A DNA stretch of 57,971 nt, filler included, from Dirinaria sp. TL-2023a (Eukaryota), in NCBI GenBank assembly GCA_051941275.1. It is 3 parts of 3 records of this genome, joined end to end, with 100 filler letters (N's around TTAATTAATTAA, not from the genome) between each part and the next. Parts side by side here need not be neighbours in the genome. Positions count along the whole stretch, not along the records: positions 38,740 to 57,971 come from JAVEBF010000346.1; 2 more parts are not named here. One strand, written 5' to 3'. Positions 19,306 through 49,700 of the stretch are shown here, piece after piece (positions within the stretch are counted from its first letter, which is position 1; each line of letters begins with the position of its first letter). The translations under genes and the position numbers were made by a program. A model generated the notes under the pieces. That model was not told where the DNA came from and searched no databases. It saw only the letters and a list, made by a program, of their open reading frames with translations.

Positions 19306-19405
19306 NNNNNNNNNNNNNNNNNNNNNNNNNNNNNNNNNNNNNNNNNNNNTTAATTAATTAANNNNNNNNNNNNNNNNNNNNNNNNNNNNNNNNNNNNNNN
19401 NNNNN
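19306..19405. other. Artificial contig spacer / assembly gap
   Basis: 44 N + TTAATTAATTAA (stop codons in all six frames) + 44 N = exactly 100 nt. Confidence 0.98.
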
Positions 19406-22400
19406 CTCTCGCGACCAGATCAATCACCGTCTGGCCGGCGGGCAGATTCCCCTCCGGCGTGCCCCCCAGCCCCAAAGCCCGCTTCACAATCAGCGCCGTG
19501 TTCTCCCTCACCACATCTCGAAGTCCTTCGACCCCGCTCAGTCCAGGACCCCACACCCCCTGCGCGCCTCTCCCCTGCGTCGTCATCCAGTAGATCATTT
19601 CATCCCGGACGAAGATTTCAAGCTGGGCCTCCAGTTCCTCCTCGGGCTCGATCAAGCAGCGTGCGATGGCCTGCAGGGCGGCGACAAAGATCCCCTCCGT
19701 GGCCAGCGGGCCCATGAGCGTTTGCAGGTTCGGGGTCAGCCGGAAGGGGACGGGTTCCGGGTTGTGGAAGATGGGTCGCTGGGACGCCATCTGCGGCGCG
19801 AGCTCGCTGCCCCAGATATTGCCCGTGGCGCGCGCAATGGTCAGCTTGTGCGGGTACCGGCTCGTCATGTGCATCGTGTAGGTGAGGAACGTCAGCGCCG
19901 CCAGCTGGTAGCTGAAGCGCCGGCGGAAGAGCCAGAAATCGGCAAACGACGGGTACGTGGCCGAGAAGTACTCCTGAGCGATGGTCGCGGGGACCCATTT
20001 CTGGACGATGGCTTTGAAGGTTTCGAGCTTGAAGGGCATGGTTTGCTCGGCGGAGCGGATGCTGCGGAGGTCGGACATGGCCGACATTGCGCGCAGGCGG
20101 TCCATGGTGAAGAGCACTGGATCGTCTTTGTTTTGGCTCTGGCGCCGGCAATAGTCTTCGTAGATGCCTTGCAGAGAGATGTATGATGCGTCATCTTGAA
20201 CGAGGCGGAAAGGTGGCGCGATGGGGATCATGCGTGGGAGGAAAAACTGCAGGTTACGCCGGCGAGACTCTTTGCGCTTGGAGAGGGTCCCGTTGAAGAT
20301 GCGGAAAAGTTGCAGGATCCGCTCTTCGCGACGCGAGTGTCGAGCAGCGGGGTGCTGTATGGCGAAAGGATGCACGGAGCCGTCATGTCCGCGGATTTTG
20401 AGACGACGATGCGAGAAGCCGACGGTACGCACAAGATCAATATTGGGTAGGAAGCGTTCAATGCGGACAAAGTCTTGGTTTTTGTCGGCGTGCTCGAGGT
20501 ACTGCCCTGGTACTTCCACTTCGTCGAATTTCCCAAATCGAAATTCGGAGAGGTGAGGGCTGTAGCTCTCCAGGCTTTGATGCTGGACACGGCGATCGAG
20601 TTTCTCTTCGAACTTGTCGCGCCATTTGCATAGCTTGTGGATGTATTCGTACATGGTCGGGCGTTTGGCGACGAAATCTTCTTCGAACGAGCCTTTGATG
20701 TGCGAGGGAAGAATGGTTTGGGAGAAACGGCGGATGTTGTGCTCCGTCGCTGGAGGAAGCTTGAAGTCTTGGGCGTAGGCTGATGGAGTTCGACTAACGT
20801 AGGCCAAGGCGTCGTTGAGCAATGCTACTATGAGTCGATACGCATCCTCATCTGGAGGACACTTGAAGTGTTTCTGTATCTGATCCACCATAGTCTCCAT
20901 GGTGAGAGCCAAGAAGGGAAAGGCCGTCTTCAGCACCGCCATTATCTCTTCGGAGTGGTCCCAAGCAGGCTTCTTCACCGGCTGCGCAGGCGGGTCTGTA
21001 CCTCCCATCTGGGTGTCTCCGTTTGTCTCTGATTTGGTCGCGCCAGACCCGTCAGGTTGATCTGGCTGAGATGTATGGCCGTTGGACACATCCTCACCAT
21101 TCGCAGTCCCTGGTCTGGAAGCACTGCCTGCTCTGGCGTTCTGTTCCGGCGAGCTGTGTTGTTTCACATTCGGTGATTGCTGCTGCTTGGCTTTGTTGCT
21201 ATCCAACTGCTTCTGGTCCTGCTGCTTCTTGATGGCCAGCATGTCCTCGCGATTGGTCCTCAGCAGGAAGTACAGCGCCTGCGGGTATTTCTTTGCAATC
21301 ATTACAAGTATACTCCGGGACATGTGAGCCTCGGAATGCGAAAGGCCTGTCAACAGCTGAGGTATAAAGGTGATCCAGTACCAAACAGGGGTTTCGCCGG
21401 GGAAGTCTTCAAACGCTTTTGCCATCTCACCATCTGGGCTGTCGATGCTCAGCAGCCAAAGTACCCGGCTAAGGAGCTTTCTGGACTTGGCGTTCTTGTA
21501 CTGGCCTGCGGCTTCCAGATAACAGGCAACGGCTGCGGCACCCGCACTGGCCTCGTGTGGCTTCTCCTTGAACTCGTCGTCATTGAAGACACCCCACTCA
21601 GCCCAAGCCTTGGGTAACCGGATATCATAGTACAATGCCGTGCCAAAGGCAGCATTGGCCTGCTCTTTATGCCCTAGTTTCGCCAAGAACATCCCCTTCA
21701 ACGTGAAGAACTCGGCCTTCTGCTGCTGGCCAAAGTAATTGAGATTCGTGTTGTTGATGACCTCCAACCCGCTGCTAAGCTCACTGCGATTCTGATAATG
21801 GCATTTGGCCTGTTCACGTAGCTTCAAGAAGGCTTCTTGGATCTCGATATTGGGCAAGGTGTAGATCTTGCTCAGCTGTGAAATGCAAACTTCTGGAAGT
21901 TGATGCTTCCTAGCGACATGAGCGAAGCGGTTGATGATCCATGCAGTTTCATGGTATCCTCGGTAGGCGTAAGAGTTCCCGGTTGCGTTTGTCTGGTTCT
22001 GCGGAAGCAAATTCAGATACGTGCGATTGATGAGCTGGAAGATATGTTGCCGCCAGGTTACGAGGTCCTGCCAAGCGTTGATGTCGTCCCAAACATTCGG
22101 TAGTCTGTCTCGCCATGTACCCAGTAGGAGTTTGAGTTCCTGGGATTTCGTATCCAGGTTGGTTGACGTGGTCACCGCCAGACTGTTACATATGACGTTT
22201 GCATCGTGCAGTTCGACGAGCTGCTGGAAGTTTTGCAGGATCGGTATGTGAGCATTGGTGATACGCTTTGGCAACTGATGCCATTTCTTGATCGAAAGCT
22301 GGATGGATTCGTCGCATATCTTGCTGAATTCTTGCGGTGCCTCAATCTTCTCATGTAACCTCAACAGCGAAACGAAAGCTTGGAAAAACGTCCTCCTGGG

Positions 22401-25400
22401 GGTAGGCGCGTCAGAAACGGCTTTGATGATCGAACTCAACTGCTCCAGCTGGTCTTGCTGTTGCCATATCTCGAGCGTTCTCCATGCCGATTCGAGCAGC
22501 AGGTCGTTGAAGTTTTCATGCTTGGCAAAGTCGCTCAATATATCCCATTGCTGCAATTTCTGTGCACACAGTACCCAATGATCCTCCCACAGCATGTATT
22601 CGCCTTGCGAGAAGGGCACTGACCCAGTGCGTGCCTTAATCTGTGCGCCTTCGTAGAATTCTTGCGCTTTGTCCCACATGCCGTTTTGCTCGTATGAAAG
22701 TGCGCAGTTCGTTTCAGTGAATTTGCTTCGCCGCCGCCAAGTACCGTAGAACAGATCGTCTTCTTGTAGTCCGGCGTAGATCTCGATGAGTGCATCAAGA
22801 TTGCTTTCTCGCACGGTTGGCGTATCAATCACGGGTGTGATTGCAGCTTCTTCCAAAGCGACTGCCGTCGTATACCACACATCGTATGTTTTACTGAGAA
22901 ACTTCATGACGTGAGGGGGGAACTTGCACTTGGGTTTGGCTCGAACAATGCCTTCAAGAAGGGCTTGGACGACATTCGGCCGCCGGTCGACTTGACGCTG
23001 ATGGTAGTCCTTGGTAAGCAGCGTCACCATGCCTTTCTCAATCTCACTACGGTCGTCCCGAGACAGCAGAGACCAGCAAAGTGGGAACAAGGCCACCCAG
23101 ACATCGTATGCGACTTGCGGCTCCGTGTGCTGTAGTTGGCACAGCGGCTCGAGCACATCACGGGCGCGAACATCACCTAAGCTTGCGTAGAAGCGAGAAT
23201 AGTCGGTCATGAAATTTGCGAATTGGCTGTCGAGCGTTAATTTGTCCTTGCGGCTATCATCTCGTGAAATACCGAAAAGCTGCGCAGGAGAAATCAGGGT
23301 GAAGTCTTCTTCGTGCAGCTCAACGTTGGCACCCATCTCCACGGCGCCAAAGACCAATTGTATAGCCTGGCTTAACCAGAAAGAATCGCTGAGGGTGTCC
23401 CAGTTCTGTGAGATGAGAATGTACAATAGGCGTGCGCTGATGGCTTTTTGCAGGCTCTTATCGAACACATTCATGAAACGCTCGCGCATTTCGACGTCCT
23501 GCGCTCGTGTGCCAACAAGGAAGGCATGTTCTAGCCTTACCGTGAGCTCCGTTCGCGTGATCCTTGGGTCCTCGTAAATGCGTATGACCAGATTCAAGAA
23601 CTTGTGCAACAGCGTTGGGTCAGGCCTTGTTTCAAACCCAAGCATCTTGTGTAGGACAGCTGTCTTCTCCTTCAACGTTGGCCAAGGCTCGTTCGATTCG
23701 AAGACCCAAAACTCTACCAGGCTCAGCACCTTCTCACAGAGCTTCGTATTCGCGGATCTCTCCACCAGAGTTGCAAGAATACTGAGGAAAGCTCGCCGGC
23801 GATCGCCTAGCGCTGCCATTCGTAGTGAGAGTACGTCCGTGGCTTTTAGTGCGAGATCGGTCGAGATCTCAAGCTCTCGCGGATCGAGTGCATCCGTTGC
23901 ACGGGCCCCAGATGCAAGCAATTGAGCGGGTGGTGCTGGCGGTTGAACTTGGTCTTTTGCAAGCTTCGATGTCAACGCATTAATGATCTGCTGAATATGT
24001 TGATCGACCTCCTTAGGCCGGACCTGGACAAGGCTCCATAGAATATTAATGCTGGGCATGAGAATTTGGTTAGCCATAGTATCTGTAGCCACGGCAGATA
24101 TGAAATTGATGAACTCTGTAGCCGGTGTTTCGACCTCCATATCGTCTTCTTCCCTTTCCTCGGTGGGCAAAGCTTCGAGGATTCGTCTTAACAGCGGTCT
24201 GATAGTACGTCCGTCATCCAGCTGCTGATCAGATATGTGGAGACTCTCCTGAATTTCAGGCTCCTCAAAGCGAATGGGTTTCTCGAGTATCTTTTGGATG
24301 GCGGTGAGATTCGACAAGACCCATTCATCAGATTTCACATTCAAAACTACCCTTATGACTTGCAACGTGTTGATGATACTTGTGTTCATCTTGTCGTCAC
24401 CCTTATCGGTCTTTTCCGACGCCAGTATCTGATCCGTCATCCTCGACATGATGTCGACATCGACATCAACCCAAAGATCCGGGGCGAGGAGATCGTGCAA
24501 AAGCCAGATGGCCTTCTTGCACATTTCATTTGGAGGCAACGGTGCCTGCTGCGCTGCGGATCCAATTTCCCGCAGCTTCGCCGCAGGTAACGGGTACCGC
24601 TCTGGAAGGGTGCAGATAAATTGTACGAGATACTTCAACAGCATGGCTCGAAGAGGCATTTGGATGACAAAGTCCGTCTTCTCCGCAATTCCAGACGACG
24701 TACTGAATGTTGATGACGGAGTGGGTCCTTGAGAAAGATCCAGTTTGCGCATCTTGGCCGGAACGGAATCAGACGAGCCCGATGATGGTCTGTCTCCTCC
24801 ACGCACCCGTACCTTCTCCCAGTGCAGAATCATCTGGATCAGGTTGAGAACTAATTTCTTGTGTTCGTTTGATGGGTTCGGTAGAGGTGCAATTTTCGAC
24901 AGAGACGGGATGATGTGGTTTACAAATTGCTCGCGAGCTTCGTAAAAGAGGTCAGGGTGCCGGACCATGAATTGAAAGATACAGATGATCTGTTGCAGAT
25001 TTGAGCTCTCTTCAGAGAGAATCTTCTTCGGCCATTTGGCCCAAATAGGATACCTCACATCCGCTGGAACGGCGCTGCTCAGCCGTTTTGGGAGATATGG
25101 AGCGACTAGATCAAGAGCTTGAATCACGAGAGCCCGACCTTCGTTCTGGTGAGCCTTGAGCAAGGCGATATAAATTTGGTTGACGATCTTTGTCGGCGTT
25201 TCGAATTGAGCGATGAAATAGCTCACCAATACGTATGCGGCGTGCTTATTGATGGTATCTTCCAGTTTCATGTAGCTCCATCCAAACTTGATAATATCCT
25301 TGCGAGCTTCGCTGACCTGACTGTGGTAATATTTGAGTAGTAGAGCGGACAGCTGCAACAACTCCAGACGTGAGTGGTCAGCCCCAGGCTGAGCATTCTC

Positions 25401-28400
25401 CTCGCCTGTATCCAGGAGCTGAGGCTTCCACAGCTTATTATGTATGGCTTCCACAATACTCTTGTCAACGAAACGACGTTCGACATTGGCCGTCTGGTGA
25501 ACTCGTAGAACGTCCATGGCGAATATGGGATTGACAATTTTCTCAAAAACAAAGGCTTTGACCTTCTGTGAAGAGCTCCGTGAGCTATAGAGATCCAGAC
25601 TGCGCATCACTAAACTTCGCCATAGATCGATCGATTCACTCGATATCAAGTGATTATAAAGGTAAGAGGAAAACGACGCGTGCTGTTTGATGGCTTCAGA
25701 GGTAAATGCTTCTATCAGCTGAAACAGAAAGTCGAGATCTTGCGGCCTTTGTTTCATGTAAGCTACGAATATATCGATCATCTGCTCTCCGGCTTGGTCA
25801 GCTGCCAAACGCAGATCTCCAGCGATGCTATCAGAGGCCAGTGCCTGATGGAGCTCCTTCCCAACGCTCAGAAGGGTATCGCGGAAAGTACGGGCTTCAG
25901 CGATCCACTCGCTTTGATGAGCACATATGGTTTTCACCACATGTACAGCATTCACACCGGCAACGTTCCTCTTCTCGGCATCTTCGACATCAGTGAATGT
26001 CTTGATCAGGCCTTCGATATCCGCGATGACGACATCTCGCAGTGGATCACTTTGAGAAGAGTCTAGTAATTGCGCGAAAAATCTGCCATACTTGAGCTCC
26101 GACATTCTTTCCCCGAAAAAAGCCCAAGTCTCCTTCGCATATCGATTCAAGAATTTGAGAAGTGGCTCGCGGAATGGACTGTAGTGCACTCTTCTCAGCG
26201 AGTCTTCGAGGTCCATTACTTTGTTAACGAGATCCTGCATGAAGCTAGCAGCAGCTGACGGCAGAAGATGGAAAATATTCAACACTGCGATGACGATTTG
26301 CATCTGGGGATGTTGCTCGATGAGGGCAAAAGAAGATTTCTGCAATGCTTGGGCGGTCGCGATATGCGCAAGATGAGACAAAAGCCGTTCCCCAATCTCC
26401 ACTTTGAAATAGTTTGTCAACAGCGCTAGCAACCGAGCTAGCCCTTGTAAGCCTTTGACATTCAGTTTTTCCGGATTTTGGAGGTTCATGAGGATCGGTC
26501 GAAGGCCGCTCTGTAGAAGATCTTTGGGTAGCTTGTTTGTCTGCGCCAGGACACCCTTGAGGCCACTGTTCGCTGCTTCAATCACATCCGGATTGACCGA
26601 GTACAGCGACTTGAAGAAGACCGAAATGATACGGCTACGGCTCTGGGTCTGCTGCTGCCCAGCAAACTCAGAGAAGCCCACAGCTAGTGAGAGAAGCTTG
26701 ATACATGCTACTCTAAGGCTGAGGATCGATTCGGCCGCTTTGTATTCTGATGGCTTGTGTGCAAGTGCCTCGTCCTCCGCGTCAGCCAAAGCCATAGACT
26801 CCGTCAACAGCCGGTGAAGCGGTTCGTTGAACTCGACCAAATTCTGCTGCATGCCTAGACAGTAGGTGATGGCTTCGATATAGCCGATCTGAGTAGCCAA
26901 TGGCAATACCCTTAGAGGCTTGCTGTATATGAGGTGCAGTAAGCGATCTTTCACGGGAGATAGAAGCTCGTGAATCTCAACCTCCACCACCTCCGCAATA
27001 GTCGTAAAAGACCGCTGCGCTGCGGCGCGTACATGCTTATTCATATGCGCCAGCTCATGGATGAGGAAGCCGCAAGTGTTATACAGCCGACTTTGGTGGT
27101 TTTGGATTTCTCCTTTCGGGACACCTTTGCTGCATCGTCGTAATATGGTTTCAATCGTCTGCAACGCTTTATTCCGAGTGCTTGCTGGCAGGTCTTGGGG
27201 CATATCCTTGATAACGTAGATGAGTGATCGAATGAATTTCGTTTGTCTAGTGACCATCCAGTGATCACCAAGATCAATCTTGGTCACGAGTAAGTGAAGA
27301 GCTAAGCCCCCGCCTGCCTTCATGAACCATTCCTCCTCATGGCACTTGTGACAGCATAGATCGGCCAAAGAACTGAAAAAAGGTAGTCTGTCTGCCTTTT
27401 CCTTTCCTCCCATGACAACACCTGCTGCTTCATACATGTTTACGATAGCCCTCTCAGCTACGTCACGGACGGCAGCATTGTCAGATGACAGTGACTCGAC
27501 TATAGCATCTGCCAATACATGACTATCGAGGTTTAACGGGCCTTCTCCGGACCGGACATCGAACTCCTTTCTCTCTTGCTTCATGCGGGACAAGGCTCTA
27601 CCGAGCTCCAGGATCGTGAAGTGGCGGCAGACGTCGGCTAGAAGATTTGAAGCTACAGTGTCGAGGTTTGCTATCGTTGCAGCTAGCATACAGGCTTTCA
27701 ATAATTTCTTGAGCGTCTCCTCCTGCGATTCCTTCTTGGAAACCGACTTTTCACGATCGGCCATTAAGACTACATCTGGGCCTGCATCGTACCGGGCTTC
27801 AAGTAGGTCCTGTGCCTGTAAGCGCACAATCTGTGCCAACTCGTCTGGAAGCCTGTCAAAGCCCATGTGGAGCTTTAGCTGAGCACTGATAAGTCTGAAA
27901 GCTTGCTGCTTGTAGTAAGGATCGGCCTTTTTAGCCGCCAGGGCTTTGGGGCTCTCAGTCAGCCTGGTGATGGCGAGGTCGATCCCCAGTTTGGCTGGGA
28001 AAGCTCTTTCTTTGGCAGATCCTATCAATTTAATGTTAATGCTAGGTTCGTCATCCGCGAACCGCTTGTACTCCAGACGCGGAGGGCCAGTCAGGAATTT
28101 ACGGTTGCGGCCACCAAGTTTACCAAGAATCCGCATGGTGGTGTGTGCATGGAAGTGGCTGTATGGAGTCGGTTGAAGATGGTCCCAGAGCGCTGTCATA
28201 AGGTCATCGATGACCGGTGCCATGATAGGATCAAGGTACTCGGCAGTGAGATTATCCACGCACAGCTCCAGCGTTCGCAAGCCTTGGCTGACCAGGTCCG
28301 ACCCTGCACGAAGGGCGATGACCAGCGGGCGCATGAGGTAGCTCAAATGTGGCAAGAGATTGCTTAAGCGAGCAGGTACTGTAAGACACAGCTCCACGTA

Positions 28401-30928
28401 GAGGTCTCGCTCCTGCGGCTTACGTGCGGCGAGCAATAGGTTGTTCAGCACCTCTAGCAGCATTTCTAATAACGGTAAAATTTCCTTGTACAGTAGCTCA
28501 AACCGTCCTCCGCCGATACTGCGGAAAAGCGATCGCAAGAGGTAGAAGTAGTTCATCGGCTCCTCGGCTGTAGTAGACAACTGGATCGCTTTGGTGACGA
28601 TATTCGTGACGTGGGGAAGGAGAACAGGCTCGTTGGGTTGCGAAAACAATGTTACCGCCATGAAGGAGAGCTTGAACATCCGCAACAAAATTGACGACTT
28701 CTTGATATCTGAACTACCCACATCACCAATACGATCCATCAAGAACTGAAGTAACATGCCGGCAAAGCTCGGCGAGGTAGCCTCGCTAGCGAGGAAGAAT
28801 TGAGGAATGTGAAGAAGTGCAGTATGCTCGAACATCATCTCATACAAACGTGGGATCTCAGAATGAAAGACCTCGTGGAAAGTTGCAGGATCAATGCTGT
28901 GGAAGACGGTTGCAAAAGTCTCGAGAAGTTCCTTTTCTTCCTTCCCGCTCTGGACCATGTACTGGTTCCCCAGAAACTCGAGTGGAGAATTGTATGTAGC
29001 CTCGGTCGGCGGTTGTTCGGAGCTGTAGTATCGGAAGACGTGAGCGCCCTCTCGAAAGAGCTTTTTGATGACATCGACTTCCTCGGCATCATAACCGTGG
29101 GATATCTCCGACCAGTTCGGTGGAGCATTTGCAGGGTCCATGGCCGGGGTGTCGGGATTGCAGAGTCGTAGCTGGTAGAACATGCCTTTGAGCCCGGTCA
29201 AGAGGTTTTTGAACAAGAACTTGTTATCATCTACTGGATTAGCACCGCGATCCTTGGGATTGGAGGTCTTGATGGGCGTAGCAGTGAAAATATCAATGTC
29301 GTCCCAATCAGGTGGATTGCCCGAGTCTAGAAGATGGTCCTCGGCGATTGCATCGATCGTCTGCTGCTCGTAGAGCTTGGATAATTTGACTGCGTTTCGA
29401 TAGTGCCTATTCATAGCCGCAAACTTTTCCGCAATCGCGCTCAATATCATGATCAAAAAGTGACGCGCGTCCTTCTTGTCCTTGAGATTGGCTATACTGT
29501 CCGCCATGTTGAGCAGAAGCTTTGCACTCATAGTCTGGAAGCTGGTGCCGGGGAAGTTGTCATGCAGATTCATCGAAAACACGTCGACAGTCTTTCGAAT
29601 CTGGTCCCGGTTGAGAGTGTCGCGGACATGATGGATCAGGTCGGCAAGCAAGCTATACGCGAGTGGACGCAGAGTCTCATACACGGTCAGCCCGTCCCCG
29701 ATCAGTGTCCGCGCATCCAGAAGATCGTCAATCTTCGTCAAAAAGATCTTCCGAAAGTTGAAATTGATGGTGTGCCGGATAGCTATGAGCAGTTCTTTCC
29801 TCGTGGCCGATTTTTCGCTTGGACAGTCCCGGAGTAGACGAACAACTATTTCTGGTAGTTTTGGCAAGAAGTCGTTCATGTGCGAATAATAGACCCGAAG
29901 CAGGTAGGCCAAGAAGCTCATCACCTTGACCTGCGCCGTGATGAAGTCTCCAAAGGCGGCTTGATTTTTGATTTCCTTGCTGACACCAATAAAATTTTCC
30001 CCTCGTTGTCTTGCTTCTTCGTGCGCTCGCTCTTGTGGTTTGGCTTGGAGCATTAAGACTACTTTGATTAGTGGGAGGAACTTCTTCACATTGCTCGGAG
30101 TGGAGTTCCGGTGGGCTTGAAATAGCGAAACGACGATGATCGGACACTCTGCGAAAACCTTGAACGAGTCCATGCCCTTTAACAAAGGCCGATTGGTTTG
30201 CATATCGATACTCAGATCCGATGCGACCGAAGCGGATGGCGAATTGGGCCGAGGGGATTGAAAGCTCTGACTGTTGCCTGCAGCAGTTCCCGACGCGGCT
30301 GGAGTATCGAATGTGTTCTGCACCACTTGCTCGACGTTCTCGAACATTTCTTGGATTAAGTTCAGGAACGGCTGGATTTTACTGGCAGTCGCTTCGGTCT
30401 GATATCTTTCAAGGTCCATGACCGTCTTCATACAGAGAATCGCGTTATCCTCATTCTCCTTGCGAACCAATTCCATTAGCAGACCGACTATGCCATCGGC
30501 ATACGGCTTGAGAGCTTCCACATGGTTCATGGGAAGACGATGGAAGATCTCCAGCACACAGTTCCGCAATTTCTGAAGAGCCATAATCAGTATGAGCTGC
30601 CAGAAAACCCGAGTTAGTGACGCTTACATGCTCCCAGGAGGTGCTCATGAAACTGGGTGGGCCCTCCAAAAGCTTCGAGAGGACTGGGACCAGCTTGCGA
30701 AGGAAGAGGGCATAGGAAGTTCCGCTGCAGAGTACATCTGTACTGTCCCGGAGTTCGGTGGCAGTGCTGTACTTGAGCTTGATGTCTGTACAGGGTTGTC
30801 AGCCTGGAATTCGACCGATGTTCGATGCCTGCACAGTGGGGCTGTTGAGGCTCGGGTGCAAAGTCCATACCTAAGCCAGTGTCTGCCAGCCTGGCAGCGA
30901 AGACATCAATCTGTCGTTCCGTCATCAT
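19406..30928 (-). CDS. TRA1: Transcription-associated protein 1 (TRRAP), PIKK-family pseudokinase of SAGA/NuA4; the last codons fall in the gap
   Basis: join(30928..30871, 30785..30628, 30572..<19406); ~3800 aa of HEAT/FAT repeats, [24 protein letters not shown], ending at QTVIDLVAR inside the FATC domain. Confidence 0.98.
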
Positions 30929-43411: not shown

Positions 43412-45537
43412 ATCATTGTCCGAGAGTTGGTTCAAATGCTAATAGCCTTGCACGTAATAACGATCGGCATTTGTATGAACCCAGTACTAGTGTGTAGGCA
43501 GCTACCTTGGGATGCCGTGCTTCCATCCAGGACGATTAGATATACCGTACCCAGGAATTCGGACATCTTCGACACGCCATTTATTCTAGTCGAAACGGAC
43601 GAACCTCGGATTTCTCTATATTCTCTTCTCTCGTCGCCATTGTGGGAAATCCCTCTTAAGCCTATCCTGCTGTGGACTGGCTAGCCTCATGGGGTAGTCG
43701 TACTTGGTGAGTACAGAGACAGTCTACAGGCTTTTCGATACCGTACGCCGCATCAAAGCCCGAATCTGTGGCGTGTGATTATCACCAAATAGCGATCAGA
43801 ATCTTCTAACGAATTTCGAGTTCTTCGACAGTCCACAGCAGCGTCATATTGGAAATGCCCTCGGTGTCAGAGACGATTCGCCGCTTTCTCAAGTTTAAGA
43901 TAGGCATGATCAGCTTCTCCGGCCTTGAAAGGCACGACACAAGAGGTGGATAAAATTGCTGTCCTTCCAGGAATTAGATCGCAAAGCTACAAGTATTTGT
44001 ATCGCTCGGTGCAATGATAGAGTATGACGGAACAAGATGGTAACATGTGTTACGACTTCAGGAGCGTCATACGGAACCTCGCTCTCTTCACATGGTGAGC
44101 CAAATTCTATTGCATTCGATCTCGCTTGCTATTGAAGCGCGAGGCAGAGTCACGTCAACCTCGTCTTAAGCGACTTGACAGAGTCTCAAGACGAGATCGA
44201 ATCTTGAGTTAAGTTAGCAAGAGAAAGCGAGCCTAATTGAAAGAGAACTGATCCGCTCGTTTCTTTCTCGTTCTTTAGTTATTTGTCTTAGAAATAGGAG
44301 CCTGCTCTTTTTTTCTTTCACTTCTCATCACCAATAATCGAACCCCTTCACGCGATGTGTCTGTTTCTCCCCTGTAGCTTTACTTCAATTACGAAGCTTC
44401 ACTCAAAAGAGACCCTTCATCTCACAAAATGTTAGCGTACAAAAATTGACATGCGTTTGAAATCCGCGTGTCTGCCGGCTAGCGCACGAGGGTTCGTTCT
44501 GCATGGGTGACTGTGCCAGGCTTTCGGAGATCTCTGTCACCCTCGGGAGAAATTGCTGGAGCTTTGATACCTCAGGTATTCTACCTCACTCAAAGAAACC
44601 TCATCAAAGCGTTGCAGCCGCTTGGGCTTTCTCCGTCCCTTCCCCCCTTCATTTTGTGCAATTTCAATGGAGCTAGTCGGCGTACTCTGAGTGCAGCGGT
44701 ATCACCATCGGGCTACAGAGCTCCATCATCCCAGATGAGATCCTTCCTTGGGAGACGTGGATCTTCCACTCGGGCGATACTCAATCATAAGTGTACAGTA
44801 TACGTGGAAGGTGGTCCAAAGTGAGGAGATGTCGTTTCATTCGCAGAGACGTGTAGGCTAGCTTCCCCACAATAGCTGAACCCTTATAGGAGCGGAGCGA
44901 CTAGGGGGTGCGCCGGTTAATATTAGTTCGTATTTGCCTTCATCCTCAGCTGCTTGATTGTTTTCTTCACTTTCGTATCTCGAACACAGTCAAATTCACA
45001 CTCAAGTCTTTCGTCTCGATAGGCAACCGGGTACCTTAGTAAGCTTATCACGTGACATAATATTAAGTAACATAAAGATTGCCTCGACTGCACAGTGCCG
45101 AGGTTATGTAGTTATTCATATTTCACTTTGGTGTAGCAATGAAACCCGGTTTATTCCTCCCTCCTACAGACCTATTAGGCTACTAGGTAGTCCAAACGAA
45201 AAGAACTTGCGACGGGATATTCCCTTTTGACTACATCCCGAAAGCAGAGTACTTCTAAACTCAACCTCAGCCTTCACAACTTCTCTGCCTACACTTATGT
45301 AGCTTGATCCAACCACTCCTACCCCCCTTAGCTCCGATCTCACATCTCAAAATGGTCGGATACACACGTGTGCGCAAGTCGCCTTTGCTTAGAGGTCCGC
45401 GCATACGTCGCGAGTGGACAGGGATGCCAATAATAATATGTTAGGCGACAAGCTCGGACGAGTTCAAGCTCTCGCTGTAAACTACTCAGCCTTCCAAACG
45501 GACTCCGATCGATGTCTTGACTCTATCTGCGGATAGC

Positions 45538-46239
45538 ATGCATCATGCCTTCGTCCACCTCGTGCAAGCAACATGCTGCGCCCTCATTGTGTGCATATAT
45601 TGTCAATTTATCTTTCCGAACCTAGTCTCCTCGTGGCCTCTACAATCGTTGAATCCCTCTCTCCAGCTGCTATCGTCCGTTTCGTCACCGCCCACAGTAG
45701 CAGTGCAAAATTTTACAGGATTAGACACCACTCCATCAAACAGGTATCTAGTATCATATATGTTCCCCCATAACAGGCTGCCAGCTAACATAGGTGCAAG
45801 CGACTCGTGGCCTCCTACTCCTTTCTTTCTTAGAAACATAAACAAAAACGACACCCATCCTCAATGGATGCATTTCACCTCCAATGGTTCTCGACTCGAA
45901 CCAGAAGAAAGCACCTCGATAAGTTGGTACATGCGGAGCCTGATCCTTCGCCTTTCGGAACTCAATCGTGATGACCCTTGTCCGGGATACGTGACTCCGA
46001 CTGGGGCTCATACAGAGGTTGAACTCGATGTGCACCTATTCCGATCACCCGTGCCTACGGTAGCGCTATGCGAACTTGTGATGACCATATTCGAAAGAAT
46101 GATAGAAAAATGGGGCGCGGAGGTGATCATGTTCAGATTTGGCCAAGGGACAGAAATCGACAGGCCACGAGGTAGGTTTCGACTTTCATTGAGGCAGCCC
46201 CGTGTAGGCCAGGAGGGAGGAGAACTTGATCAGTCGTAA
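45538..46239 (+). CDS. Putative secreted protein of unknown function
   Basis: ATG at 45538; hydrophobic N-terminus (ALIVCIYCQFIFPNLVSSWPL), Ser/Thr/Pro linker, then WPPTPF...ELVMTIFERMIEKWGAEVIMFRFG...RGRFRLSL. An intron-like stretch near 45744-45793 could not be spliced in frame. Confidence 0.6.
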   Translation: MHHAFVHLVQATCCALIVCIYCQFIFPNLVSSWPLQSLNPSLQLLSSVSSPPTVAVQNFTGLDTTPSNRYLVSYMFPHNRLPANIGASDSWPPTPFFLRNINKNDTHPQWMHFTSNGSRLEPEESTSISWYMRSLILRLSELNRDDPCPGYVTPTGAHTEVELDVHLFRSPVPTVALCELVMTIFERMIEKWGAEVIMFRFGQGTEIDRPRGRFRLSLRQPRVGQEGGELDQS

Positions 46240-46393: not shown

Positions 46394-48503
46394 CTATAGA
46401 TTGAATTTGGAGATGAAGTTTGATATTCCATCATAGGAGGCCATCAACGCGCGCTTCCGCCGTGGATTGAGACCGAAGAAGCTCCCCGCGTATCTCGTCC
46501 AAGAGCAGTCTGTCTGTTCAGCCCTGACCCCGTAGGCAAAGTACTCGTAGTTGGCGGCAACATTCTCCGGAAAGTTGACTGGGTTAAAGTCCGGTAGCAC
46601 GCGATTATAAGCATACCAAGTGACACAGCGCCAGTCATAGCAAGCACCGAACTTCCACTTTGGATCCGTGTGGTAGCCGTCATGGATGTCTCTGCCCACC
46701 AGATGAGGGACCTGGAGGAGCAGGTGCAAGAAGTTCCCGCCTTGCTCATTGATTGTGGGGTTTTGCTGCGTGGGCACCGCGCACGGCAGCGCCAAAGGCT
46801 GGTAGAAGAAACCCGGGCAAAAAATCATGTACGCCGTATGCGGCAACACGAGGAACGCCCTTGTACCTTCCTTGCAGAAATGGGTTTTGCGTTGGAAATC
46901 GCACCGCAATTTGATGGCGGCGTCGTTGCCGGTGGTGTTCCATCGCGCAGCGATACCGAACGTGTCGTACACTTGTTGCTGGACCTGCGGCCCTGCGTTG
47001 AAAGCATAGACCCAGTAATCGCTATGGATATTGTTTTGAGCGAATTTCGCCAAAGTACGAGCGTTGGCCGCCGCGTCTTGCAAAAGTACCAGCGCATCCC
47101 CGGAACATTGCTGGGAAAGAGTAATCGACTGCTCCCAGACATTGTCGGTCTGTCTGCTCGCAAGGCCGTGAGCAGCGCTCGACCGTGGGACTGGTCTCAG
47201 ACCAGCAACAGGCTGTGCATCTCTCTTCTCGACCGCAGGAAGTACTCCGTTCGGAGGAAGACAAGAATCGCCATTGTAGGGTGCACCACCTTGTCCGTAA
47301 CCCCATTGAGCGATGGCCAACTGCGCGTAAGAGTCCGGGTTCTTTGTCGCATTTGCTTGTGAAGGCGGAGCTCCGCTCGAGTTCGCAAGATCGATGCAGC
47401 CAGAGGTTCCACAGACACTATTGGAGATGACTGGTCCTACTACGTTGTTCAAAGTTAGAAGCAAGTGGAACATCACGTGAGATGTAGAGCTGCTTATGTG
47501 GGTTCCAGGCGGCGCGGAGCATGGGGCTGGAACTCTCCCTAAGCTCATAGCAGACGGGCATAGAACGATATCTGCGTCGCCGACAAATGATGGAGTAAAA
47601 CTATAACCCAAGATATTTGAATCGGGGCTACATAATTGCAGACCGTCAGTACAATACAGGTCAACATGAGGACCGGAACCAGTGACACTGCTCGCGACTG
47701 TGCTCGCGACAGCTTGCACAGTTTTGCGAGAAGCCTCGGAAAAGAATTGGCCGTAAAGCTTGCTGTTCGAATCGTTGGCGGCCAGTGCAACGGAATGAGC
47801 ATATATGCCGGCATCTGACAGGGCATCCGATACAATCGTCGCGTTCTGGGCTACACAATCTGCCGTGTCCATTTGAGCTCCGTTCGCAGCGCTCGCATAC
47901 GAAGCGTCGACATCTCGATATATCGGGAACACGGACGAAAGCCGTAATGGCTGAACAGCCACTGTGATATCACCCAGGCCTGCAGCCGCATAATTTCCCA
48001 GCCTCGGTGCTTGAGAGGTAAGATCCGCTGCTGCGTCGGTCGGAACGACATAAGAACCAGAATGAGACACGCCTTGGAATACGGACGTAAGAGCGACTTG
48101 ATACAGTATCTGACCTCCTCGACTAGGTCCGCTTGGAATGCTCTGCAAATAGCTCCTTAGATCAAAGGTTTTCGAGAACGTCTGCCCTGGTGCGAAATTG
48201 TACAGATCATTGTTGGTAATGCCCGAGCGCATTGCATAGGTTGAGGCAATCTGCACATCTTCTCCTTCATCGTCAATGATATTGAAAGACACAGGCAACA
48301 GCGTCTGGTTATCGAAAATGTTGTTCCATTTCAGGATTGAGATCGTGTTTGCAGTGGGATTGGTGATATTGATGGTGATGATGTATGGATTACCCAGGCC
48401 GGTGATAGACCCAGTCAGTTGAGCGAACGATGTCTGGCTCGAGAAAAGGACTACGCAAATCAAAAAAAAAGAGCCGTTCCGATGAAAAAGGCATGATTGC
48501 CAT
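46394..48503 (-). CDS. Secreted tandem M35 (deuterolysin-like) pseudo-metalloprotease: signal peptide, prodomain and two catalytically degenerate domains
   Basis: Prodomain ITNPTANTISILKWNNIFD; domain 1 LYCTD..LC / IVLCP / FHLLLT / NPDSYAQLA; EKR linker; domain 2 LRCD / IFCPGFF / EQGGNFLHLLLQ / VAANYEYFA. The ATG at 48503/48494 is in frame only if the A9 run at 48462-48470 is A8. Confidence 0.8.
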
Positions 48504-49700
48504 ACCTGCTCAGAGAATGGGGCCGGGTCACATGGTATTTGAGATGCACCCACATTATTATTAGGTACGGGACATCATAGCGATGAGAGGTAAACAGCGA
48601 CGAAGTACGCGCCAATGCTCCCGCAAGAAAATAGAATTGGTTGGGTTAAAAAGCGCTTCAGCGGTTATTCGATCGCCTGTTCAGCCTCTTGAGAGAAAAG
48701 TAGACGCAGGAAAAGCATCGAACAGCATTCAAGCACCTTCATCAAGAGCCCAAGCGCCTCGATTTGCTCGCCGGAGCGCTGTGCGTCATTCATTTTCTTG
48801 CTGCTCCAGCTCATCGTGGTTTAGATTGCCATTTTGTGGTAAGGAAGAGCTGGTCCCAAGGCAAGAGTGGCTCCTTGCACATTTTCTCCATAATACTCCG
48901 GCTTGTGGACTTGATGTTAGGCGATGTGGTGGACATGTTTTATATTGGGATTGAAATGACCATAGAGACTCACGTGGAGAGCGTTTGCTGCAATTTTTCG
49001 GATCTTGATGTTCCTATTGAATGAATTGTGTATTGATTGCAAGTAATCAAGCTTGCCACAACGACCGGGACGCAAGAAAAACCTACCAACGTCTATGCAG
49101 AAATGTAGCTGTAGTCGAAATTGTAGGCTATTTTTGAGGTCTACTGAGTCATCATAGTTCCACTGCCCATCACAATATCGATAAAGCGAAAATATAATGG
49201 CCACTGACTTCAATTGATGAGACTCAAGACATTTTCCTCCGAGTTGTGGCGGACCTTTTGTCACCTGCTGCTATACACTGAAATTGACATTTTGTTACTG
49301 TTTTCGTTGGTTAAGATGCCAAGATGTCGTTCTTTCTCTTTGCGGTCAAACGGTTCTGCATGGCCTTGACGAGCGTTTTTTTCTTGGGAAGAGCCCTGTG
49401 GCTTTAGCTCTTAACACAGATTGTGGAGGTAGGATTGAAAGCTTCTTGTTGAGCAACGCCCAGCTCTGTAACGTCAGAAGCTTTCAAGGTAGAGTGGAGA
49501 GGATTCCAGAGATTGAGTTCGTTTACAGTCTCTGACATTAACTATATCGGAAATTTCTAGTAGATGTGAACCTGCATCTTTAAGAAATGATGGATACCGC
49601 TAGATCATCTATTCAATCCAGCGCTGCTGAGAATTACTCTGCTGGTATAATCATGTAAGTTTGATCCTTCGTCCATCTCGCCTGACTCCTTCTCATATCG

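Follow-up and report, generated by a model that had tools for sequence, protein, structure and literature searches.

A gene on the minus strand of a 57,971-nucleotide stretch of DNA from Dirinaria sp. TL-2023a (GCA_051941275.1; hereafter the window, in which parts of three records are joined, the gene lying in the part from JAVEBF010000346.1) encodes a protein with two consecutive M35 (deuterolysin-fold) domains, D1 and D2, both of which have lost the HEXXH motif; on balance, we favor the reading that this gene specifies a selected, non-catalytic tandem M35 protein. Judging from the alignments and the tree described below, D1 is a fixed non-enzyme throughout its family, that is, its loss is ancient; D2 is normally a working-type aspzincin (HExxH plus Asp), and its loss in this gene is recent and lineage-specific. 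Dirinaria is a lichen-forming genus (Caliciaceae, Lecanoromycetes); the initial annotation of the locus had placed a pseudoprotease of this kind possibly at a symbiotic interface, and the fungus is indeed a symbiont.

The open frame extends from stop to stop over 726 codons (window 46394–48574, minus strand, as for all features of the gene given below; stop codon, 46394–46396), and it is collinear with its homologs over its full length, without any intron-like insert. We number residues according to the 685-residue translation of window 46397–48451. A region with signal-peptide character is followed by an M35-type propeptide, predicted as a β-sandwich (residues 11–195; 47867–48421), D1 (residues 196–406; 47234–47866), a dibasic KR pair (residues 409–410; 47222–47227), a linker with low model confidence (residues 411–444; 47120–47221), D2 (residues 445–662; 46466–47119), a second dibasic cluster, RRKR (residues 664–667; 46451–46462), and an 18-residue C-terminal tail (46397–46450), also modeled with low confidence.

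The folds of both domains were assigned with AlphaFold2 models searched with Foldseek (TM values are normalized to the target). The model of residues 1–410 (pLDDT 91.6, pTM 0.92; 111 aligned sequences) matches the AsaP1 proenzyme 2x3a (E-value 7 × 10−13, 381 columns), deuterolysin 1eb6 (TM 0.78), the Grifola peptidase 1g12, and Candida Pra1 9n47; the model of residues 411–685 (pLDDT 83.2; 34 sequences) matches 1eb6 (E-value 9.9 × 10−6, TM 0.78, rmsd 3.3 Å), 2x3b, 1g12, and 9n47, with nothing else below an E-value of 0.01. For both models, 1eb6 is the top single-domain structural match, and sequence profiles match it as well (E-values 1.6 × 10−6 for D1 and 4 × 10−9 for D2); in the D2 profile, HeLlH...IgDg is aligned to HEFTH...GTEDLGYG of 1eb6 and the C-terminal N-x-A-x-x-Y-x-x-Y-A to NNADSYALYA. 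The C-terminal N-x-x-x-Y helix motif and the cysteines are retained in both D1 and D2. In Pfam, residues 194–377 (D1) score just above the cut-off of Aspzincin_M35 (PF14521; 31.2 bits vs 30) and just under that of Peptidase_M35 (PF02102; 26.6 bits vs 27). We assign D2 to the family because of its fold and the matches of its orthologs, which score 33–74.5 bits with Aspzincin_M35 and up to 39.8 bits (P0006) with HRXXH. These comparisons bear out the two M35-like domains, the M35-type prodomain, the conserved cysteine pattern, and the NADSY-type motif proposed in the initial annotation; the Pfam profiles by themselves give a mixed outcome, with Aspzincin_M35 just reached and Peptidase_M35 just missed in D1 and no match for D2. 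The ESM Atlas returned generic M35 clusters only. A complex prediction for propeptide plus D1 against D2 scored 0.08 (the mark is 0.34); it was run without alignments and without controls and counts neither for nor against an association of the two pieces.

In M35 peptidases, the hallmark HEXXH is described as providing the two zinc histidines and the catalytic Glu (PMC12924839). We compared the motif positions in an alignment of 94 close members of the family (the window protein included) and 17 distant single-domain relatives. In D1, HEXXH is replaced by HLLLT (residues 329–333; 47453–47467), in which H329 is conserved in 92/94 of the close members and L330 and T333 in all 94; in the 17 distant relatives, the corresponding columns hold the original His (16), Glu (14), and His (15). 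The zinc-ligand Asp of GTXDXXYG is also absent from D1, in which the remnant reads ISNSVCG (47408–47428) with N344 (47420–47422) at the Asp position; across the close members, this position is most often Asn (35), Gly (25), Ser (15), or Gln (8). In D2, HEXXH is replaced by HLLLQ (residues 576–580; 46712–46726; E577L and H580Q), and the equivalent Asp is kept as D591 (46679–46681), which lines up with the Asp in GTEDLGYG of 1eb6 and is Asp in 30 of the 32 other rows. The spacing from the end of the motif to the Asp position is 11 residues in both domains (T333 to N344 and Q580 to D591). Three of these residues (Glu, second His, and Asp) are thus gone from D1 and two (Glu and second His) from D2. 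The degenerate motifs, their coordinates, and the missing Asp of D1 are exactly as first annotated. Because the defining HEXXH is missing from both domains, we classify the protein, from its sequence, as a non-peptidase homolog within M35 and predict that it has no zinc-dependent endopeptidase activity.

Two other residues of D1 are unusual. C347 (47411–47413) occupies a position that is Tyr in 70/94 rows and Cys in 2/94, the window protein and its ortholog P0003; it is an eighth D1 cysteine, beside C352. H325 (47479–47481), four residues before H329, is His in 87/94 close members and in at most 2/17 of the distant active relatives; H325 pairs with H329 (H-x-x-x-H) a turn of the helix ahead of the old motif, and this could be a new site.

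The relatives were collected with HMMER, run exhaustively against 1.84 billion representatives (105 proteins at an E-value ≤0.001, 25 at ≤10−30), and in a word-indexed search (85 relatives). The named matches, a minority of all, belong without exception to lichen-forming genera of the Teloschistales or Caliciales. The members share one layout, that is, a plain signal peptide, an M35 propeptide, D1, a conserved KR, a linker, and D2; by this comparison, the window gene would belong to a small family of secretory proteins of lichen fungi that has no name as yet. Among the 37 relatives that cover the D2 motif, HExxH is present in 33; the exceptions are P0003 (HLLIQ), P0007 (HNLLH), P0088 (HSLIS), and the fragment P0130 (QELMH). 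In P0007 and P0088, the zinc-ligand Asp is in addition replaced by Asn. Among the relatives examined, the HLL[LI]Q state is restricted to the window gene and P0003 (69% identity), and a D2-region search of 492 long-protein candidates for further orthologs in this state returned only the gene's own record and P0003. Conservation of the degenerate motif across the relatives takes the form of a fixed H-L-x-x-T in D1; in D2, HLL[LI]Q extends no further than this pair. The same Dirinaria genome encodes P0015 (Q9191_002149), a paralog with an intact HELLH in D2 that the tree places in its second main clade; part of D2 is missing from the P0015 model and shows as a gap in the alignment.

The lengths of some records require comment. 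About 50 relatives of 487–550 residues end ∼35 residues into D2. We considered the records of ∼490–500 residues as D2-less forms and rejected this; P0048, P0061, P0062, and P0043 continue through an apparent intron into D2, that is, they are intron-truncated ORF calls. Five other records (P0080, P0081, P0085, P0086, and P0093; 413–419 residues) end at the KR or shortly before it, and four of these are NCBI gene models from Teloschistaceae; they may be natural propeptide–D1 proteins, in which case the D1 module would occur alone as ∼415-residue forms ending at the KR, or they may be another intron truncation. A search for stand-alone relatives of D2 gave one match in 747 candidates.

The pattern of change in D2 looks like purifying selection on a doubly dead pseudoprotease and not like decay. 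Of the 43 D2 columns that are at least 85% conserved in 17 HExxH-bearing D2 domains, 39 are retained in the window protein, which departs from the others by G486A, D569E, E577L, and H580Q. P0003 keeps 22 of the 25 columns that it covers, and the active members, scored leave-one-out over the same columns, keep fractions of 0.76–0.98. All of the family-conserved cysteines of D1 and D2 are present. Identity to P0003 is even by region (propeptide 70%, D1 73%, D2 68%; linker 55%), and the terminal branch of the window protein is not accelerated (0.20; median, 0.16). We also simulated neutral substitution on the window ORF (300 replicates, with transitions and transversions drawn 1:1 and divergence calibrated on amino acids): at 83% identity, the level that corresponds to a single lineage when P0003 is 69% identical, the replicates contained a mean of 5.7 stops, and at 69% identity a mean of 10.1 stops, and no replicate (0/300) was stop-free at either divergence. 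Because the E-to-L and H-to-Q changes are common to the window protein and P0003, they most simply predate the split of the two; given that no neutral replicate remained stop-free, the frame would have been held open since catalysis was lost. As indirect evidence, this supports the proposal that the fold has been kept under selection.

Several observations weigh against a selected, non-catalytic tandem protein. D2 alone matches no Pfam family at an E-value ≤1; the searches gave a single ortholog in the HLL[LI]Q state, P0003, and its record ends within D2; H583, H590, and H594 lie near the retained D591, which leaves some room for residual metal binding; and the 5′ end of the gene is interrupted. 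In all homologs, the initiating Met is placed 17–26 residues before a conserved AQLTG, that is, a signal peptide of this length directly precedes it. The window has two candidate ATGs in this region (48503–48501 and 48494–48492; together, 48492–48503); both are one base out of the main frame, and their own frame, MAIMPFSSERLFFF..., runs into a stop after 37 codons. The main frame across the same stretch reads ...FFLICVVLFSSQTSFAQLTG..., that is, the hydrophobic core of a signal peptide and its cleavage region, ending ...SFA|QL (48422–48466), and its first in-frame ATG is found only at 48232. The would-be junction of the two frames is a homopolymer of nine T's (T9; 48462–48470), and the start frame and the main frame give a normal signal peptide only if this run loses one T. 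If the T9 is real, the product would not be made from the conserved start and would not be secreted. The first description of the locus as one intact ORF with a signal peptide is therefore right about the long open frame and the signal-peptide character, and it does not hold at the start, because the ATG at 48503 and the signal peptide are in different frames.

We attribute this break either to a miscalled homopolymer, the genome being metagenome-assembled, or to a very recent frameshift. Once one T is dropped, 24 residues separate the Met from the Ala preceding QLTG, in the window gene as in P0003, which has an in-frame 'AIM' at the equivalent place; an in-frame N-terminal signal peptide is thus absent from the sequence as it stands and present if the run is T8. 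Introns do not offer another solution: with a GTATGG donor at 48505 and an acceptor at 48451, the upstream frame runs into a TGA (48512–48510); with the same donor and an acceptor at 48434, the upstream frame has neither an ATG nor signal-peptide character; and for any other intron the stretch is too short. The public model of the locus (P0002, Q9191_003099, Dirinaria sp. TL-2023a; 636 residues, 100% identical) begins instead in an upstream exon (MSWSSKKMND..., window 48451–48800) that has no signal-peptide character and is apparently a way around the frame break; the model also splices out 79 codons (HVDLY...NNVVGP, window 47453–47689) that hold the D1 motif helix and are conserved in every homolog. 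From this comparison, we consider both the upstream exon and the excision to be artefacts.

These features could be explained by a young pseudogene, in which the frame break is real, the start and signal peptide are lost, and the catalytic loss in D2 reflects relaxed selection on a redundant paralog; we judge this explanation unlikely, while giving it real weight. The break does separate the main ORF from the only ATGs close by, the first ATG of the main frame comes at 48232, the public model had to borrow an exon without signal-peptide character, and an active-type paralog (P0015) is encoded by the same genome. However, the remaining 685 codons form an open frame that is collinear with the homologs, D2 keeps its conserved positions and every cysteine, P0003 shares the same catalytic changes together with an in-frame Met at the equivalent place, the neutral replicates never remained stop-free at this divergence, and a miscall in a metagenome-assembled genome explains the break equally well. 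Given these signs of selection, a real frameshift would have to be very recent.

Alternatively, the protein could be a non-proteolytic metal binder (zincophore-like, as is Pra1) or a residual enzyme with alternative ligands (H576, D591, and a nearby His in D2, or the H325-x-x-x-H329 pair in D1). The Pra1/Aspf2/Zps1 zincophores (HRXXH, PF13933) are an apt comparison: Pra1 is a fungal secreted, deuterolysin-like protein with a degenerate HEXXH and is described as lacking protease activity (PMC3386192), and our models match its structure 9n47 (TM 0.62 for propeptide plus D1 and 0.57 for D2; D2 profile E-value 5.4 × 10−7). The retention of D591 with histidines nearby, and the enrichment of H325 in the close family relative to the distant active relatives, also agree with a metal site. 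Pra1, however, keeps both motif histidines (H-R-x-x-H) and binds zinc, whereas the second His is Thr in D1 and Gln in D2 of the window protein; the general-base Glu is missing as well, and neither the whole protein nor D2 alone matches PF13933 in Pfam. As compensating D2 ligands, we rejected H590 and H594, which also occur in HExxH-bearing relatives and so do not set apart the clade in which the motif was lost, and H583, which is absent from P0003. We therefore regard metal binding or residual activity as improbable.

The order of the losses can be read from the tree. In a maximum-likelihood tree of 16 two-domain proteins, two changes of the D2 state are required: the window protein groups with P0003 (100/100) and P0007 with P0088 (100/100), in separate clades, and the latter pair groups with the active P0004 and P0090. 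For D1, because the new motif is fixed in the 94 close members and HExxH is present in the distant relatives, we conclude that the domain descends from an ordinary propeptide-plus-M35 enzyme and was frozen in its new state before the family radiated. The initial annotation had instead proposed a single catalytic loss before an internal duplication, giving a polyprotein of two anciently dead domains; although both motifs start with H-L-L-L and D1 and D2 align collinearly with the motifs in register, this is contradicted, and very improbable, given that D2 has HExxH in 33/37 relatives, including the same-genome paralog, that D1 and D2 are 21% identical over 173 residues (E-value 0.018), that the outside relatives nearest to each are different single-domain HExxH proteins, and that the tree puts this D2 loss on the branch of the window protein and P0003 only. 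Because D1 and D2 are only 21% identical, their common HLLL is, on this evidence, a coincidental hydrophobic filling and not an ancestral state.

In the secretory pathway of fungi, cleavage after KR or RR is the work of Kex2-type convertases. The annotated KR between the domains and RRKR near the C-terminus are both present, and these two places hold all three dibasic sites of the window protein. Positions 409–410 are dibasic in 78/94 close members (KR 63, RR 14, KK 1; eight rows are gaps), and the linker around them has low pLDDT; a conserved inter-domain dibasic site in a low-confidence linker fits Kex2-type processing. We place little weight on RRKR, which cannot be aligned in the homologs, and on the tail, because neither has a counterpart there.

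For the selected, non-catalytic tandem protein, we propose the following working. Assuming that the T9 run is an error, the precursor would enter the endoplasmic reticulum and secretory pathway, where disulfides (16 Cys) and N-glycans (seven N-x-S/T sequons) would be added; a Kex2-type cut after KR409–410 would then release a propeptide–D1 piece and a D2 piece, neither of which would hydrolyze peptide bonds. The product would probably bind its targets instead of cutting them; D2, which would keep the M35 cleft, would most likely bind the targets of its active relatives (the partner is hypothetical), and it could serve as a substrate trap or possibly as a decoy for inhibitors aimed at active paralogs of the same fungus, such as P0015. 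A decoy role is reasonable because numerous M35 peptidases are reported alongside putative protease inhibitors in the secretome of the lichen Xanthoria parietina (bioRxiv 10.1101/2024.08.16.608140) and because XLP1/XEG1 of Phytophthora is presented as a precedent for a non-enzymatic paralogous decoy (PMC12003678). XLP1 is a functional analogy only: like the window protein, it is a non-enzymatic secreted paralog beside active ones; unlike it, XLP1 has a glycoside hydrolase fold, belongs to a plant pathogen, and has a demonstrated decoy action, whereas that of the window protein is a proposal. We also entertain, as a long shot, a broader proposal in which a lichen-specific family has the D1 module as its true functional core; the signature of this module is S-H-V-x-F-H-L-x-x-T-L-N-N, in which Leu and Thr are invariant and a new His stands one helical turn upstream. 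On this proposal, the live protease domain attached to D1 would have been switched off at least twice in lichen fungi, making paralogous decoys or ligand traps beside active M35 enzymes and inhibitors at the fungus–alga interface.

By fold and ancestry, the protein belongs with the M35 peptidases and aspzincins. Each domain superposes on deuterolysin (neutral protease II; MEROPS M35, PF02102, 1eb6) with an rmsd of 3.3–3.5 Å over ∼200 columns and shares its cysteine framework; unlike deuterolysin, the window protein lacks HEXXH in both domains and the Asp in D1, carries two domains per chain, and is only 18–22% identical to it. The AsaP1 proenzyme of Aeromonas salmonicida (2x3a/b/c) has the same β-sandwich propeptide followed by an M35 domain; however, it is a single-domain active enzyme (the crystals are of E294 mutants) with no second domain, and its propeptide and domain are placed differently from those in our propeptide–D1 model (rmsd ∼20 Å, TM 0.31/0.41). 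The ordinary family members (for example, P0004, P0005, P0006, and P0015; 44–49% identity) have the same architecture, dead D1, and KR linker; in their D2, which reaches 74.5 bits with Aspzincin_M35, both HExxH and the Asp are present, whereas the D2 of the window protein has HLLLQ. AVR-Pita is an M35-like effector. Non-catalytic M35 relatives, such as Pra1, are already known; a tandem form with a D1 that is dead family-wide and a D2 inactivated independently in two lineages is different, and in the parts of the literature covered by our search we found neither a tandem M35 family described as having a first domain fixed in a dead state nor one in which the second was repeatedly inactivated.

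The surroundings of this locus in the window are ordinary for a fungus, with housekeeping genes such as Tra1, PP2A-B56, TFIIIC, and Rxt3 and genes for a hydrolase and an MFS transporter, among others; within the window we found neither a gene cluster nor a partner gene. The Tra1/TRRAP-type gene is a single, seemingly intronless frame of 3757 codons (window 19350–30623, minus strand; Tra1_ring 1685 bits, FAT, PI3_PI4_kinase). Just downstream of the M35 gene, on the opposite strand, is an open frame of 252 codons, a candidate gene, without a Pfam match (window 45481–46239, plus strand).

The analysis flags two annotation problems at the locus, that is, the excision of the codons for the D1 motif and the replacement of the signal peptide by an unrelated upstream exon. 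If the 413–419-residue forms are real, D1 would have a role of its own. The setting adds to the interest of the family: in lichen fungi, M35 proteins are reported to be numerous in the secretome, and hardly any secreted protein has a known role. With active, half-dead (HNLLH), and fully dead forms of D2, the family is a natural series that bears on why a protease fold persists after its catalysis is lost.

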